A stretch of DNA of 43,420 bases from Kagunavirus LM02P1. The notes under the pieces were generated by a model that was not told the origin of the DNA, made no database searches, and saw only the letters and a list, made by a program, of their open reading frames with translations. This document shows, piece by piece, positions 5,024-40,335 of this stretch (its first letter is position 1; each line of letters opens with the position of its first letter). A program made the translations under genes and the position numbers. The stretch is taken from the sequence record OZ035819.1. The stretch is one strand, 5' to 3'.

Positions 5024-5410
5024 ATGAATCTTAAAGCAACTGTCGTAGCTGTAGCATGTTTCATCATCCTTGCCTACGCACACGGCTACTATCAATACCG
5101 CATCGGCTGGAACGAAGGCCGGGTGAATCTCGTTTCGCAGCAACAGCAGAAAGCACAGGCTGAGTTAGCGAAGAAAACACAACGGCAGCAGCAGGACGAA
5201 TCTAAGGCCGCCGCCGCCGATTCCAAAGGCAAGACTGAATCTGAGGTAATCACCCGTGAAGTCGTTAAGTACATTAAAACGCCTGGTCGCAGCGTGTGCA
5301 CTTTCGATGATGCTCGCGTCCTGCTCAAGTCCCGCGCCGTCGCAAACGCCAATTCCATCTCCGGATACGACGATGATACAGCCGCCGTGCAAGCTGGCAC
5401 CGCCAAGTAG
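5024..5410 (+). CDS. Rz: i-spanin (Rz-like inner-membrane spanin subunit)
   Basis: 128 aa; N-terminal TM helix VVAVACFIILAYA then charged Q/K/A-rich periplasmic region; a lipoprotein ORF overlaps in the +1 frame. Confidence 0.65.
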   Translation: MNLKATVVAVACFIILAYAHGYYQYRIGWNEGRVNLVSQQQQKAQAELAKKTQRQQQDESKAAAADSKGKTESEVITREVVKYIKTPGRSVCTFDDARVLLKSRAVANANSISGYDDDTAAVQAGTAK

Positions 5411-32675: not shown

Positions 32676-34943
32676 CTATTCCAAATCTTCCTCTGTCACT
32701 GTCAGCATTTCATTCGGTTCGTATATTGTCTTCGGAATCTTGTTATCCGTTATTCGGGTGTTCAGCCTGTAACGGCCTGGAATTATCTGATTGTTTTCGT
32801 CGGTCCCTGGCACAAGATAACCCGCCTCAACCATTTTCTTAATCTTCCCACGTTCTATGGCTTCTTTGGAGTTAAACGCCTTTGCGTTAGGGTCGGACTG
32901 TGCGAGCTTATTTGCCGCAGCTACTGTGATACCTTCGTTGCCATTGTAGGTTCCTTCCGCCAGTTCAAACGCCGCCAGTATCGTGGCCTCCGAACTGTTG
33001 ACGGCGTTCTCTACGGTTTTACGTACGTTTTCTTTACCTTCCTTTGTCAGCCCTTCTTCCCGCTCTTTCTCCTCATCGGTCTTGAATGGCTCGAATCCCC
33101 AAGGCATCAATACAAGCGCCTTGTGCGGTTCAGGCAGGTCGAGGTTTACGATTGTGCCGTATTCCTCGGTGGAACCGAGGAACTCAACCGCGCGGTACTC
33201 TTTCGGCGGAGGTGCTTCACGGAACTGTACCGACTCCAGCACCATGCCAACCGTCTTCTGTTGGGGGCCGTGCTTAAATTTCGAGTGGTATACGTTTATC
33301 TGACGGTCGGTTGCACGTTCGATTGTCAGTTCCACGTCGACACCCGCATACAGCGCCCCGCTGCCACGGGCTTTCTTTCCGCCCTTCGGGGTATGGTGGA
33401 CAACGCCTACCGCAGCTTTAGTCGCGTCGCGTACTTCTTTCAGGATGGCGATAACTTTACCCATACCGATCGCCGTTGATGAACTGTTCTCGTCGAACTT
33501 ATCAATCGTCAGGGCCAGCGTCTGGTTGAGTGTGTCGAACGCAACCATACCAATTGGCTCGTCGCCTGCAGTTTCGCGCATCAACTTAATCAGGTTTTTC
33601 AGTTTGCCGACTTCGCCCATGTCGATGACATGTACGTAATCTTTACCTTCCTCGCCATATTTAGCGGCTAGTGCATCAATACGGGTGCGTGTAGCGGCAC
33701 CGCCCTCGCCATCGATATAGAAATGGTGGCAACGCTGGGTATCCGCCCCCGCAAACCGGTATCCGGCGGCGCTGAGGTACATCATCCCCAGCGTATAGAA
33801 CGATTTGTACGTACCTGATTCCCCGACAATATCCCAGATACAATCTGACGGCATGTACCCTTCAACGACGAAATCCGCCTTTACTGGTTCTGGTAGCTCG
33901 TCCTCCTCTGAGTCATCATTGTCTTCCAGGTCGTCGAGGCTGCATGAAACTGATTCACGCGCACCCCAGCCGATAGCCTCTGCGACTTCACTGAATGGCA
34001 GCCCTGTAGCGTCACACGCATACTTCCACACCTCTTTCGGCGACATGCCCTCGGTTGCCGTGATGTCGGTGTCGTGAATCATGGTTACGTTAGGCGCTTC
34101 GTATCCCTCGCGCGGGAAGCACAACAGGAAGTCGTCCGGGCGTGGAGTCGGGTCGCTATAGTTTTCGGCGTGTTCTGGTGTGGCGGGCATCTTAAGGCCG
34201 CGTGGCGTCAAGATGCCGCCGTGCTCGAAGGCCAGTGCTTCAAACGCATCGGTAAACGCAGTGCGCAGTTCTTCCGGTATCTGGTAATCCGATGCGCTGC
34301 TCACCTCGTAATCCGGGATGCCTTCCAGTAACTCGCCGGGGTCAATCAGGTCATTGCGGCGCGACCAGATAACCTGAGAGCCAACCGGCGGCAGGTACAT
34401 CGGCTGGGACAGAGTAAACCCGCTGCGGTCCGCGCCCATGCCTTTGAAGAAGTGCTCCAGCAACCCGTGACGTACGCGGATGATGTCACCGCCTTCGACC
34501 GGGCGGGCCAGCGGCATGACGACGCGAAAGCGTGGAGACTCATCGGTATGGGATGCCGTGGTGTAAACGCACATGGCTTTACGGCCTCGCTTAACCAGGC
34601 GCACTGCTTCCTGGTACTCTTCCGGCGTTGCGCTGTCGAAGTCAAGATACGCCAGTGACGATTTGGTTACAGACGCGTCACAGCGATAGAAGAAGCCTTT
34701 ACGCGCATGCTTAAAGTCACCTGTTTCCGGGTCTTTTACGGTGCTGTGCGTTGAGTCGCACGCGGCAGTGATATACCCCGGCGCTGTCTTAGGGTTAATC
34801 CCGTCATGAACAGCATCAAGCGGCTGGATTAACTCTTTCAGGTCGTCCAGTGTTGCCGTATGTGTGGTTCTGACGTTTATATCCTTTTTCTCCGCCCGCG
34901 CGTTGCGACGGGACCACGAGTAGGATAAAATTACATCGGACAT
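32676..34943 (-). CDS. bifunctional primase-polymerase (AEP) / P-loop helicase
   Basis: 755 aa; AEP motifs AYLDFD and TTASHTDESPRFRVVMP; C-terminal Walker A GESGTYKS, Walker B-like MVAFD. Confidence 0.75.
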   Translation of the reverse strand: MSDVILSYSWSRRNARAEKKDINVRTTHTATLDDLKELIQPLDAVHDGINPKTAPGYITAACDSTHSTVKDPETGDFKHARKGFFYRCDASVTKSSLAYLDFDSATPEEYQEAVRLVKRGRKAMCVYTTASHTDESPRFRVVMPLARPVEGGDIIRVRHGLLEHFFKGMGADRSGFTLSQPMYLPPVGSQVIWSRRNDLIDPGELLEGIPDYEVSSASDYQIPEELRTAFTDAFEALAFEHGGILTPRGLKMPATPEHAENYSDPTPRPDDFLLCFPREGYEAPNVTMIHDTDITATEGMSPKEVWKYACDATGLPFSEVAEAIGWGARESVSCSLDDLEDNDDSEEDELPEPVKADFVVEGYMPSDCIWDIVGESGTYKSFYTLGMMYLSAAGYRFAGADTQRCHHFYIDGEGGAATRTRIDALAAKYGEEGKDYVHVIDMGEVGKLKNLIKLMRETAGDEPIGMVAFDTLNQTLALTIDKFDENSSSTAIGMGKVIAILKEVRDATKAAVGVVHHTPKGGKKARGSGALYAGVDVELTIERATDRQINVYHSKFKHGPQQKTVGMVLESVQFREAPPPKEYRAVEFLGSTEEYGTIVNLDLPEPHKALVLMPWGFEPFKTDEEKEREEGLTKEGKENVRKTVENAVNSSEATILAAFELAEGTYNGNEGITVAAANKLAQSDPNAKAFNSKEAIERGKIKKMVEAGYLVPGTDENNQIIPGRYRLNTRITDNKIPKTIYEPNEMLTVTEEDLE

Positions 34944-37122: not shown

Positions 37123-37251
37123 ATGAAAGATTATAGCGAAGTGACTTTAGGTGAGTTGCAGGGCGAGTACGAAGATATGCTCTACCCGTTCATCTGCGAC
37201 GGAGATTACAACGGCGTCTATAACGGAGTGAGCGAAGAATATGAACACTAA
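37123..37251 (+). CDS. small acidic protein (42 aa)
   Basis: ATG at 37123 after conserved leader/RBS. Confidence 0.3.
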   Translation: MKDYSEVTLGELQGEYEDMLYPFICDGDYNGVYNGVSEEYEH

Positions 37252-37975
37252 AAACGAAGTATTCGAATACCTGATTGACCAGCTATGGCATCAGGTAAAT
37301 AAGAAAGATGTCACATCTTTCAATGTGTCTGTGCGGATATCCGACCTTGATGAGGTCAAGCAGGTAATTCACAACCTACAGCAGCATATCGCTGGTAAGG
37401 ACGACGAAATACGTATGCTGAAAGACAGCCTACGGCAGCAGATGGCGAACAACCCCCACAAGCAGCAGTGCGAAGACCTGGCGCATGAGGTGCAGTCACT
37501 TAAGAATCAGTTACGTGATATGTCGGAATTGGTGGATGAGTTGATGGGTACAATAACGTTAATGAATGAAGACTTTGGCCGCGTAACAGGGCGGAGCGGT
37601 CCTTTACCTAAAGGGGAGAGCTACGTAGTAGGTGAGCACGGGCCTGAGCAATCCGGTTGCCGTAAGGGAGATACTCAGGAATGCGAGCACTCTTGGATTA
37701 TTATGCCTGGGTTGTTTCTTAGCGAAGGCAATCCGAACAACGTTCCTGGTAGTGAGTTATGCTGTAAATGTGGTAAGCGTGAGTGGGATGTTAAGGGATA
37801 TAAACCGAAAGATGATACCCAGGAATGCTCCTATAACTGGCGATTCGTTAATGGTAAGGCTCCCGCCGTATGTATTAATTGCGGAATGACTAAATCCAGC
37901 AAGTGTGAGCACGAATGGTGCTTTTACGATGGTGGTGCTTTGAAGATGTGCAGAATATGCGGGCTAAAGAAATGA
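37241..37975 (+). CDS. coiled-coil protein with three C-terminal zinc-ribbon-like repeats
   Basis: 244 aa; three units of C-x-H/Y-x-W ... C-x-x-C-G (CEHSW...CCKCG, CSYNW...CINCG, CEHEW...CRICG). Confidence 0.55.
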   Translation: MNTKNEVFEYLIDQLWHQVNKKDVTSFNVSVRISDLDEVKQVIHNLQQHIAGKDDEIRMLKDSLRQQMANNPHKQQCEDLAHEVQSLKNQLRDMSELVDELMGTITLMNEDFGRVTGRSGPLPKGESYVVGEHGPEQSGCRKGDTQECEHSWIIMPGLFLSEGNPNNVPGSELCCKCGKREWDVKGYKPKDDTQECSYNWRFVNGKAPAVCINCGMTKSSKCEHEWCFYDGGALKMCRICGLKK

Positions 37976-38176: not shown

Positions 38177-38443
38177 ATGGTACAGAGATACGAGTTATCG
38201 GATAAATGGGAAGAGCCTAAGATGGCGAAGTATGACTGGGGTGATTATGTAGAGTACGACAGCTATAAGGAACTTGACGACTATTACCAGGAACGCATCG
38301 CCGATGCCAACGAGGAAATAGAGGTTCTCGTCGCAAGACTGGCGGAAGTAAACGCCGAGTTACAGAAATACAAAGACCAGTTCCCGGATTACGTCGAGTG
38401 CGCGAACTGTGGGTCAGTTACGCATGTGGAAGGGGTGGAGTGA
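38177..38443 (+). CDS. small acidic protein, MVQRY paralogue A (88 aa)
   Basis: ATG at 38177 with RBS AGGAGA; begins MVQRY; C-terminal CANCG. Confidence 0.45.
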   Translation: MVQRYELSDKWEEPKMAKYDWGDYVEYDSYKELDDYYQERIADANEEIEVLVARLAEVNAELQKYKDQFPDYVECANCGSVTHVEGVE

Positions 38444-38667
38444 TGGTACAGAGATACTTATTACAGGGTGGTTTAATAGGGCCGCACGATGAAGGTGATT
38501 GGGTAGGTTACGAAGACTACGCGGCGCTTGAGCGTAAGTTTGACTCGATATTAAACCTCCTTGTTAAACTAGATGATGATTTGGGTTACGGTAAGATACC
38601 TGATGAATATGCCTACGACAGAATCGGTGAGATTATCGAGAAGCACCAAAATGACCTTAGCGACTGA
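38443..38667 (+). CDS. small acidic protein, MVQRY paralogue B (74 aa)
   Basis: ATG at 38443 (TGATG coupling); begins MVQRY like the upstream gene. Confidence 0.45.
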   Translation: MVQRYLLQGGLIGPHDEGDWVGYEDYAALERKFDSILNLLVKLDDDLGYGKIPDEYAYDRIGEIIEKHQNDLSD

Positions 38668-38818
38668 CATCCTGAAAAACAGCGGCAAAGCGCCGCTGTC
38701 GCCACGTAAACGACATTTCAACACGCATCCGACGTATCTTGAATTACATGAGCGCCGGAAGACACCGGCGCAACGACTGGCTGAATATTGGAGAAAGCAT
38801 GACTACTATCGCGTTTGA
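38651..38818 (+). CDS. small basic protein (55 aa)
   Basis: ATG at 38651 overlapping the upstream gene end; K/R-rich. Confidence 0.3.
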   Translation: MTLATDILKNSGKAPLSPRKRHFNTHPTYLELHERRKTPAQRLAEYWRKHDYYRV

Positions 38819-39236
38819 CGGTAAGACGATGGCCTGCGACACCCGAGTTACCGCGGGCGACACGTATTTCAACACAGATACCAAGATATACGAGAGTGAT
38901 GCTTATGTTATCGGGGTCGCCGGTGACGCGGGCTGTGGTACTATGCTTGTTCAGGTATCAAATATCCTGACCATGCGTACCTATGAGTATAACTTTAAGG
39001 CTATTGTATACGAGAAGCACACCAGACGTGTTTTCTATGTGTCATTCGATAAAAGCTGGGGGTCAAATAGCTGCGTTGTCCCAATTGTTGATAGCTACTT
39101 CGCCGTCGGTTCAGGGGCTGATTTCGCGCGCGCAGCTATGGAATGTGAGTATTCCGCACAGGGGGCAGTGGCCGTTGCATCGAAGTTTGACACTAACACC
39201 GGCGGCAAGATTATTACCAAACAACTATTAGGATAA
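38799..39236 (+). CDS. HslV/proteasome beta-subunit-like Ntn hydrolase
   Basis: ATG at 38799 with RBS GGAGA; after Met the protein starts TTI (HslV starts TTIVSV); VTAGDTYFNTDTK, YVIGVAGDAGCG and FAVGSGADFARAA parallel HslV segments. Confidence 0.55.
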   Translation: MTTIAFDGKTMACDTRVTAGDTYFNTDTKIYESDAYVIGVAGDAGCGTMLVQVSNILTMRTYEYNFKAIVYEKHTRRVFYVSFDKSWGSNSCVVPIVDSYFAVGSGADFARAAMECEYSAQGAVAVASKFDTNTGGKIITKQLLG

Positions 39237-39295: not shown

Positions 39296-39604
39296 TTGGA
39301 TAAATTTACTGAAACTGTGACAGGCTGGCTTCTCGCTGCCGCGCTAGCCGGAGGGGTTATCGGACTACGGCAACATAAGTCCGTTATTTCTGGGCCTATA
39401 GACGGCTTCTGCTTTATTGCAACTGGCTTCACTTGTGCCGTGTTTGGTGCACCTCTCGCGGCTCAATGGTTTGGCATTACGGGCGACCGTGAAATCGCAG
39501 GCCTGGGCTTCATTATCGCTATTCTCTGGATGCCTATCTATTCCCGCCTCTCTGGTATTGTTGCCGGAGAATATATCGCACGTCGAGGAGGCCCAGATGA
39601 ATGA
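39296..39604 (+). CDS. holin
   Basis: 102 aa, three hydrophobic helices, charged C-terminus; immediately upstream of lysozyme. Confidence 0.6.
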   Translation: MDKFTETVTGWLLAAALAGGVIGLRQHKSVISGPIDGFCFIATGFTCAVFGAPLAAQWFGITGDREIAGLGFIIAILWMPIYSRLSGIVAGEYIARRGGPDE

Positions 39605-39869
39605 GTTATTCTGGTTCGGCGGTATGCTGGCAATCGGAGGCGCATCGCTGTTTAATGTATATCATCCCAGCGTTGACGACGGGCTATTTGGCCGGGTGCT
39701 CTATATCCTGACCGCTATTGTCTGCGCCGCCGGGTGTATCCACCTGTTACAGGGCAGCATGTCACCTACGCTGCCTGAGACATTAATCACATTAGTTGCG
39801 CTGCGTCAGATTCGTCATGCGTGGCTGTCATACGGAGGATATAAGCGTGTCTCGAAATATTTCAGATAA
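39597..39869 (+). CDS. small membrane protein (second holin-like / lysis regulator, putative)
   Basis: ATG at 39597 with RBS GGAGG, overlapping holin stop (ATGAATGA); two hydrophobic segments. Confidence 0.45.
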   Translation: MNELFWFGGMLAIGGASLFNVYHPSVDDGLFGRVLYILTAIVCAAGCIHLLQGSMSPTLPETLITLVALRQIRHAWLSYGGYKRVSKYFR

Positions 39870-40335
39870 TGGATTGCATTTTACCGCTGCGTTCGAGGGG
39901 TTCCGCGGAACTGCATATCGCGCTACACCGAACGAGACGTACCTGACTATTGGTTACGGTCATTACGGGCCGGATGTAACGCCAGGCAAGACCATCACCC
40001 CGGGGCAAGGCCTCCTGTTACTAAATCGCGATATGGCGAAGGCCGTAGGCGCGGTTGATGCAGCAGCACACCATTCACTGACACAGGCACAGTTCGACGC
40101 TGTGTGCGACCTGGTCTATAACGCGGGTGCGGGCGTGATTGCCGCTACCACCGGAACCGGTAAGGCGCTGCGCTCCGGTGATGTTGCGACGCTGCGGGCT
40201 AAGCTGGCGCTGTTCATCAACCAGAACGGCAAACCGTTGCTCGGCCTGCGCCGCCGTACAGCCGGACGGCTCGCACTGTTCGACGGTAAACCGTGGCAGG
40301 AGGCTGAGGCTATTGGGCGCGCGGTGAAAGGTTGA
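39847..40335 (+). CDS. endolysin, GH24 phage lysozyme
   Basis: GTG at 39847 after GGAGG; ISDNGLHFTAAFEGFRGTAYRA...YLTIGYGH (catalytic E, TIGxGH) and C-terminal RRRTAGRLALF; frame open from 39796. Confidence 0.75.
   Translation: MSRNISDNGLHFTAAFEGFRGTAYRATPNETYLTIGYGHYGPDVTPGKTITPGQGLLLLNRDMAKAVGAVDAAAHHSLTQAQFDAVCDLVYNAGAGVIAATTGTGKALRSGDVATLRAKLALFINQNGKPLLGLRRRTAGRLALFDGKPWQEAEAIGRAVKG

Follow-up and report, generated by a model that had tools for sequence, protein, structure and literature searches.

A predicted proteasome-like threonine hydrolase of the PPH family beside the lysis cassette of Kagunavirus LM02P1

INTRODUCTION

The PPH family of proteasome-type N-terminal nucleophile (Ntn) hydrolases was described in 2021 by Fuchs et al., from bioinformatics (PMC8665760). 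Its members are about 140 residues long, have no propeptide, no helix H2 and no S12/H5, and occur in Caudovirales and in prophage regions; RPC is the only other group that lacks H2 (PMC8665760). A jumbo-phage paper of 2020 had already noted HslV without HslU (PMC7823757). Here, we compare with these systems a gene of Kagunavirus LM02P1 (Guernseyvirinae). It lies on the plus strand at 38799..39236 of a 43,420-nucleotide stretch of DNA (sequence record OZ035819.1), referred to at its full length as the window. Its 145-aa product (QHJ78532.1), labelled 'hypothetical protein' in its own record, is a predicted proteasome-like N-terminal-threonine hydrolase.

RESULTS

Family profiles and predicted fold

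An earlier interpretation made from the letters of the window alone (the sequence-only reading) had proposed a phage-encoded proteasome/HslV-like N-terminal-threonine hydrolase at this position. Family searches supported the proposal. The protein matched PHROG 1040, 'peptidase HslV family', with an E-value of 5.5e-36 (125.6 bits), residues 1-142 aligning to positions 14-155 of the 277 in the profile. The Pfam family PF00227 (Proteasome) was matched marginally, at 23.3 bits against a gathering cut-off of 22.4, and was matched by 89 of 141 family members at E <= 0.01. Single sequences gave weaker signals: phmmer against the PDB was marginal (E 0.002, a Rhodococcus beta subunit), and the BLASTP comparison with E. 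coli HslV fell short of significance (E = 1), the HslV resemblance being one for which profile methods were needed. No solved PPH structure was found in the PDB; a profile built from 141 relatives matched HslV best (1m4y, E 1.6e-12), followed by beta5 (3.4e-11) and the beta-proteobacterial proteasome homologue BPH (5.7e-11). Alignment of the same profile with E. coli HslV, using hhalign, gave 97.5% probability.

The fold was modelled with AlphaFold (AF2). A shallow alignment of 14 close relatives yielded an unusable model, with a predicted local distance difference test score (pLDDT) of 47, and was replaced by a run on 141 diverse sequences, which gave a pLDDT of 95.2 and a predicted template modelling score (pTM) of 0.90. 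All of the top 50 Foldseek matches of this model in the PDB were proteasome beta subunits, BPH or HslV, and the predicted fold is the alpha-beta-beta-alpha Ntn sandwich of proteasome subunits (Pfam PF00227, MEROPS T1). Structure prediction was one of two checks that the sequence-only reading had proposed, and it returned a proteasome-beta-type Ntn fold, in which the core common to proteasome beta subunits, HslV and BPH is complete. The other, conservation of Thr2, gave an equally clear outcome, with Thr in 139 and Ser in four of 145 representative distant homologues. These analyses confirm, at the level of profile and model, that the window gene encodes a predicted proteasome/HslV-type Ntn hydrolase, with a resemblance far above chance. 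Neither the window protein nor any of three relatives matched a PADLOC-DB defence model.

Start site

Direct reading of the sequence agreed with the coordinates given for the open reading frame (ORF) in the sequence-only reading. The ORF runs from the ATG at 38799 to the TAA at 39234-39236 and encodes 145 aa, with the N-terminus MTTIAFDGKTMACDTRV; the protein thus begins MTTIAFDG, with Thr directly after Met. A Shine-Dalgarno GGAG, as read from the sequence, lies at 38790..38793 (+), 5 nt 5′ of the ATG. Two in-frame starts occur further upstream, a TTG at 38739 and an ATG at 38748, and no Shine-Dalgarno was found at either. A mechanical ORF list takes the frame back to the TTG, and one database gene call (P0005, 162 aa) begins at the upstream ATG.

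The same region holds a 55-aa ORF in another frame (38651..38818, +), which overlaps the PPH start by 20 nt and is 96% identical to ECPH5_6 of phage Ivi. A propeptide read from the upstream ATG or TTG was therefore considered and rejected: neither start has a Shine-Dalgarno, the region is the 3′ end of this conserved ORF, and relatives start with M-T. The overlap also accounts for the in-frame conservation upstream of PPH and for false N-terminal extensions of 17-20 aa. It suggests that the 55-aa ORF and PPH belong to the same operon, and translational coupling of the two is possible.

Predicted catalytic residues

Relatives were gathered from 1.84 billion cluster representatives at E <= 1e-10. 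The search returned 415 proteins, nearly all of 135-165 aa and aligned from residue 1; the median length of the relatives is 147 aa. Conservation percentages below refer to the 134 distant relatives that are 28-40% identical to the window protein, and the residue register to HslV and the proteasome was set by hhalign against E. coli HslV.

The predicted nucleophile, Thr2 (Thr1 after loss of Met; codon 38802..38804, +), aligned with Thr1 of E. coli HslV and is Thr in 97% and Ser in 2% of sequences. Asp14 (38838..38840, +; D 98%) corresponded to Asp17 of the proteasome and HslV, and Lys29 (38883..38885, +; K 100%) to Lys33. The block G39-V-A-G42 (38913..38924, +) aligned with HslV 'GFAG', placing G39 (G 83%, A 14%) as the putative oxyanion-hole glycine, G45 in HslV and G47 in the proteasome, and G42 (G 99%) opposite HslV G48. 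The Ser129 motif, G123-S124-G125 in HslV, was found as G104-S105-G106 (39108..39116, +; G 100%, S 90% with T 5%, G 100%). The segment D131-T-N-T134-G135-G136 (39189..39206, +) is the apparent equivalent of proteasome Asp166-x-x-Ser169-Gly-Gly; D131 is conserved at 94%, T134 is T, S or C in 67, 20 and 12% (together 99%), and G135, equivalent to Gly170, is G in 93%. This D-x-x-T-G-G assignment draws on what is generally known about the active site of the proteasome. E. coli HslV, which reads C-I-Y-T-N-H there, is without the motif.

The sequence-only reading had picked out three motif blocks shared with HslV. All are present, 'GVAGDA' aligning with HslV 'GFAGGT' and 'AVGSGA' with 'AIGSGG'. The 'AGD' at residues 19-21, however, is not the catalytic aspartate, which hhalign places at D14, in 'ACD'. 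With this correction, the full predicted catalytic set was shown to be under strong purifying selection across relatives of about 30% identity, and the protein is therefore predicted to be an active enzyme rather than a decoy. Outside the catalytic set, conservation was highest in helices H3 and H4, at A110, A113, M114, G117, A120, A123 and A127, each at least 90% conserved. In proteasomes, H3 and H4 form the ring-ring contacts (PMC8665760).

Membership and spread of the PPH family

The features listed for PPH were then compared with those of the window protein. It has 145 aa, its ORF opens with M-T, and there is no C-terminal domain. Neither H2 nor S12/H5 was found in the AF2 model or by hhalign. 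Homologues occurred in 319 phage records and in 378 viral-contig matches, where the neighbours include terminase, portal, spanin and endolysin. By these sequence and model features, in which every listed PPH trait was found, the window protein is assigned to the PPH family. To our knowledge, PPH is the smallest proteasome-type Ntn hydrolase.

The phage records, identified with tblastn, comprised 260 from Salmonella, 31 from Escherichia, 10 from Erwinia and others, and many carried the label 'peptidase HslV family', 'ATP-dependent protease' or 'putative protease'. In BFVD, 40 viral structure clusters matched at E <= 0.001, including those of Caulobacter, Vibrio, Aeromonas, Pseudomonas and Erwinia phages. 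The sequence-only reading was not aware of this as a standard phage gene, a view that is not supported: the family has its own PHROG (1040), is present in those 319 records and was published as PPH in 2021 (PMC8665760). The finding is a rediscovery of a family already described and widely annotated, including in Jerseyvirus and Kagunavirus genomes.

Within the family, the Guernseyvirinae proteins form a distinct subgroup. They carry a specific insertion, SFDKSWG (aa 82-88; 39042..39062, +), opposite a gap in 93-99% of the 134 distant relatives, and its K85 and W87 are invariant within the subfamily. The insertion lengthens the hairpin before the strand that in HslV lines the pocket for the HslU tail. 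W53 and P57, kept at 70-82% in the wider family, are lost in Guernseyvirinae PPH.

Longer relatives also exist. The window protein covers positions 14-155 alone of the 277-position PHROG profile, and its best BFVD match, A0A1W6DWU9, is a viral protein of 263 aa (44% identity over 131 columns). These longer relatives, extended at the C-terminus by about 120 aa, recall the RPC group of Fuchs et al. A PPH-like gene of 134 aa was also seen in Acetobacteraceae (Roseomonas, Falsiroseomonas), in a housekeeping rather than a prophage context (L092:6001-6402; also in loci L097 and L099). The gene order there is RuvX, aspartate/ornithine carbamoyltransferase, PPH, a dihydroorotase-like amidohydrolase and DprA, with neighbours at L092:4985-5920, L092:7163-8800, L099:3209-4954 and L092:9463-10581. 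The non-phage contexts named by Fuchs et al. were in Pseudoalteromonas and Mesorhizobium only (PMC8665760).

Relation to HslV and dependence on HslU

Despite the shared fold, the window protein is not an HslV orthologue. It was unmatched at E <= 0.01 by the NCBIfam HslV equivalogs (TIGR03692, 157.75 bits; NF003964, 137 bits), on which its relatives score 16-18 bits. Recent capture from a host hslV was considered and rejected, since the divergence is too great, as seen in these unmatched models and in the BLASTP result.

The sequence-only reading had stated that no HslU-like ATPase is encoded, so that the protein would have to act alone or use host HslU. The first statement held. A tblastn search with E. 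coli HslU found no HslU-like sequence in the window (best E 3.7), and nothing when the window was taken together with 83 other loci, about 80 of which carry a PPH gene (best E 1.3). Likewise, when 145 neighbour proteins encoded at 36 diverse viral loci were assigned to Pfam and PHROG families, no AAA+ family of Clp/HslU type was among the top 25. The sole 'AAA family ATPase' annotated in close relatives (Ivi ECPH5_73) is a helicase-primase, not a Clp/HslU-type unfoldase. The window has a replicative helicase-primase of 755 aa at 32676-34943 on the minus strand (phrog_3228, E 7.9e-286).

The use of host HslU, by comparison, is disfavoured by the predicted structure. Between S5 and S6, the AF2 model has one short helix (46-50) and coil, as against the H1/H2 apical pair of HslV, and hhalign placed a 13-residue gap opposite HslV residues 63-75. 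The model chain stops after strand 138-142, the last core strand, with no H5/S12. In E. coli HslV, the C-terminal tail of HslU is received by F54, F57 and Q114, together with A79/K80 on H2 (PMC6429459). The first three correspond here to T48, V51 and P95, and A79/K80 are absent along with H2; these pocket positions vary across the PPH family. With H2 absent and H1 truncated, the HslU-facing surface and the tail-pocket residues therefore appear to have been lost.

Of the alternatives to a partner-independent enzyme, the one that survives best is that PPH borrows the host unfoldase: its rings would bind E. coli HslU (or another host AAA+ protein, such as ClpX) to make a chimeric ATP-dependent protease, and host degradation capacity would be turned on phage-chosen substrates. 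The phage and its relatives have no unfoldase of their own, the nearest PDB profile match is HslV, HslV needs HslU for full activity (PMC6429459), and the hosts, E. coli and Salmonella, carry hslVU. We nevertheless consider such docking unlikely. H2 is deleted and H1 reduced to about five residues, the HslU-tail residues are replaced or missing and variable across the family, and the subfamily-specific 7-aa insertion sits beside the pocket strand. By fold, moreover, HslV is no closer to the protein than BPH, for which no unfoldase is known.

Relation to BPH and connectase

BPH is distinguished by its length and by a long acidic pore loop (PMC8665760). The window protein, at 145 aa, does not share these features; what follows its H1 is a short stretch without acidic character (aa 51-65, VQVSNILTMRTYEYN). 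In connectase, a two-helix insertion between S3 and S4 covers the active site, and the first helix pair is absent (PMC8665760). The AF2 model has no such insertion between S3 and S4, and a tight hairpin instead.

This comparison bears on a second alternative, in which the Thr1 chemistry would serve a non-degradative, connectase-like role: sequence-specific transpeptidation or ligation, or amidase action on small molecules. A classical closed double ring may not be reconcilable with the loss of H2 and H5, and the chromosomal copies in Acetobacteraceae lie between carbamoyltransferase and amidohydrolase genes. Both observations could accommodate such an enzyme. With the connectase insertion missing, however, and a second shell of the proteasome-like Ser129/Asp166/Ser169 type, we regard this reading as less likely still than docking on a host unfoldase.

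A third alternative would make the protein an inhibitor of host HslUV. Phages are known to inhibit host proteases, as T4 PinA inhibits Lon, and the fold is common to PPH and HslV, yet a decoy or poison subunit that joins host HslV or titrates HslU, inhibiting HslUV and stabilising, for example, SulA or sigma32, is highly improbable, as near-invariant catalytic residues at about 30% identity are not expected of a decoy, mixed PPH/HslV rings are implausible given the insignificant BLASTP identity to E. coli HslV, and the HslU docking surface is missing.

Genomic setting

The local gene order is small ORFs, PPH, a 59-nt gap, two holins, endolysin, further small ORFs and terminase. PPH closes a tightly packed series of small ORFs, in which ORFs at 38177-38443 and 38443-38667 precede the 55-aa ORF. 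The lysis cassette begins 59 nt downstream of PPH with a class I-like holin (39296..39604, +; phrog_2359, E 3.8e-29), followed by a second, class II-like holin (39597..39869, +; phrog_2508, E 4.5e-33) and an endolysin of the lysozyme family (39847..40335, +; phrog_33703 and phrog_7). The endolysin has a GTG start with GGAGG upstream, and this start agrees with the annotation of Ivi. The order PPH-holin-holin-endolysin was also found in Kagunavirus Bas73 and in Jerseyvirus vB_SalP_QS (54% protein identity). In Bas70, PPH is absent from the equivalent position.

Prevalence was expressed relative to records carrying a portal homologue. PPH occurred in 260 of 359 such records from Salmonella (~72%) and in 33 of 112 Escherichia/Kagunavirus records (~29%). 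Its presence in only part of the portal-bearing records makes it an accessory gene, dispensable within the genus. Beyond Guernseyvirinae, the commonest neighbours at the 36 diverse viral loci were terS/terL, portal, scaffold, Rz spanin and endolysin, with terminase the commonest family, and an order Rz ... PPH - terS - terL - portal recurred in lambdoid-type viral contigs. A conserved partner gene was sought, but the neighbourhoods were heterogeneous, with no single conserved neighbour among the loci examined.

The recurrent position at the lysis-packaging junction could be explained by a morphogenetic or lysis-timing protease, one that processes scaffold, capsid, holin/antiholin or spanin. 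The placement of PPH directly 5′ of holin-holin-endolysin in Kagunavirus and Jerseyvirus, the lambdoid-type order, the frequency of terminase as a neighbour, and the lack of an annotated prohead protease in the close relative Ivi are all in keeping with this. PPH is missing, however, from ~71% of the E. coli and 28% of the Salmonella Guernseyvirinae that share the head and lysis genes, so that an essential role in processing is ruled out. In addition, the junction of lysis and terminase genes is a known hot spot for accessory ('moron') genes, and elsewhere in the family the gene is found in replication modules or on chromosomes outside a phage context. A morphogenetic or lysis-timing role is accordingly very improbable.

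Placement of the gene among early genes, as in the sequence-only reading, was not established. In the transcriptome of Kagunavirus K1B4, the adjacent lysozyme gene is 'middle' and just four genes are early, with PPH itself unreported (PMC12645636). These K1B4 data render the 'early' label doubtful, though they do not refute it.

Several further features were seen in the surrounding sequence. Within the 3′ end of PPH, some 80 nt before the holin start, there is a sigma70-like candidate (39187-39214, +; TTGACA, 16 nt, GATTAT; 10 of 12 matches); the promoter scan as a whole was not enriched relative to shuffles. The lysis cassette may have its own promoter, separate from that of PPH. Upstream, the product of a 244-aa ORF (37241-37975, +; phrog_6094) is coiled-coil-like in its N-terminal half, and several repeated Cys pairs in its C-terminal half (CEHSW...CCKCG, ECSYNW...CINCG and CEHEW...CRICG) resemble tandem zinc-ribbon units. 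In phage Ivi, an i-spanin and an o-spanin are annotated in the head module (L085 11168-11663), about 8 kb from holin-holin-endolysin, so that the lysis genes of its phage group are split between two places. The probable counterpart in the window is a 128-aa ORF at 5024-5410, at the position matching the Ivi spanins.

DISCUSSION

Taken together, the data point, with moderate confidence, to a partner-independent accessory threonine peptidase with a proteasome-type fold, probably self-assembling and without canonical HslU docking. The gene would be co-transcribed with the run of small ORFs, directly upstream of the lysis cassette. Met1 would be cut off by host methionine aminopeptidase, Thr being allowed as the second residue, as in E. 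coli HslV. The exposed Thr would then act both as the nucleophile and as the general base of an active threonine peptidase, and the subunits would probably assemble into rings through the conserved H3/H4 helices. The enzyme would work with neither a dedicated AAA+ unfoldase nor canonical docking on host HslU. Without an unfoldase, it would be expected to cleave peptides, proteins that are already unfolded or one particular site, and not to serve as an ATP-dependent degradation machine.

Several points weigh against a peptidase of this kind. Connectase shares the fold but is a ligase, not a protease. The Pfam PF00227 score barely clears its gathering cut-off. That the protein acts alone is itself deduced from a docking surface that appears to be missing in alignment and model, and host HslU, ClpX or a different unfoldase may be engaged in a non-canonical way. 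Without bound HslU, HslV has little peptidase activity, and individual proteasome subunits are active only within the assembled complex (PMC8665760). A literature search for functional work on PPH, or on the phage 'HslV family peptidase', yielded genome announcements and the 2021 bioinformatics paper only, with no experimental work on a PPH, whether enzymatic, structural or genetic.

A broader reading may be put forward tentatively. PPH could be a self-sufficient, homo-oligomeric 'mini-proteasome' that has shed its ATPase-docking face, with which phages, expressing it from the lysis/packaging region, would destroy specific host regulators of defence, stress or envelope functions late in infection. 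Some bacteria would have domesticated it independently, as with the Acetobacteraceae copies set between genes of pyrimidine biosynthesis. We consider this doubtful as a whole. If true, however, PPH would be the first viral enzyme of proteasome-like type with a defined function, and its quaternary architecture might be new. Through its minimal size and its lack of the surface on which HslV and beta subunits receive their regulators, PPH bears on the question of what constitutes a minimal self-compartmentalising protease. Its biology is also tractable, as Kagunaviruses with and without the gene occur naturally on E. coli K-12: in the BASEL collection, Bas73 carries PPH and Bas70 and Bas71 do not, and hslU, hslV and lon mutants of the host exist.

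Among known systems, the window protein is closest to PPH as defined by Fuchs et al. in 2021. The two agree in length, in the Met-Thr start, in Thr1/Asp17/Lys33/Gly47 and in the lack of H2 and of S12/H5, as well as in their occurrence in tailed phages and prophages of Proteobacteria with no associated ATPase. They differ in nothing essential, the 7-aa hairpin insertion and the lost W53/P57 being features of the Guernseyvirinae subgroup. HslV (ClpQ), the peptidase subunit of bacterial HslUV, is about 30 residues longer, and in E. coli lacks the proteasome-like D-x-x-T-G-G that is found here, where there is no adjacent hslU. BPH (5ovs/5ovt/5ovu) has 185-200 aa, two apical helices and an extended acidic pore loop and assembles into a heptameric double ring, whereas the window protein has neither H2 nor a long acidic pore loop. 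Relative to the 20S beta subunits (beta5/beta5i, and PrcB of Mycobacterium and Rhodococcus), PPH is some 55-90 residues shorter, and has no propeptide, no alpha-ring partner, no H2 and no H5.

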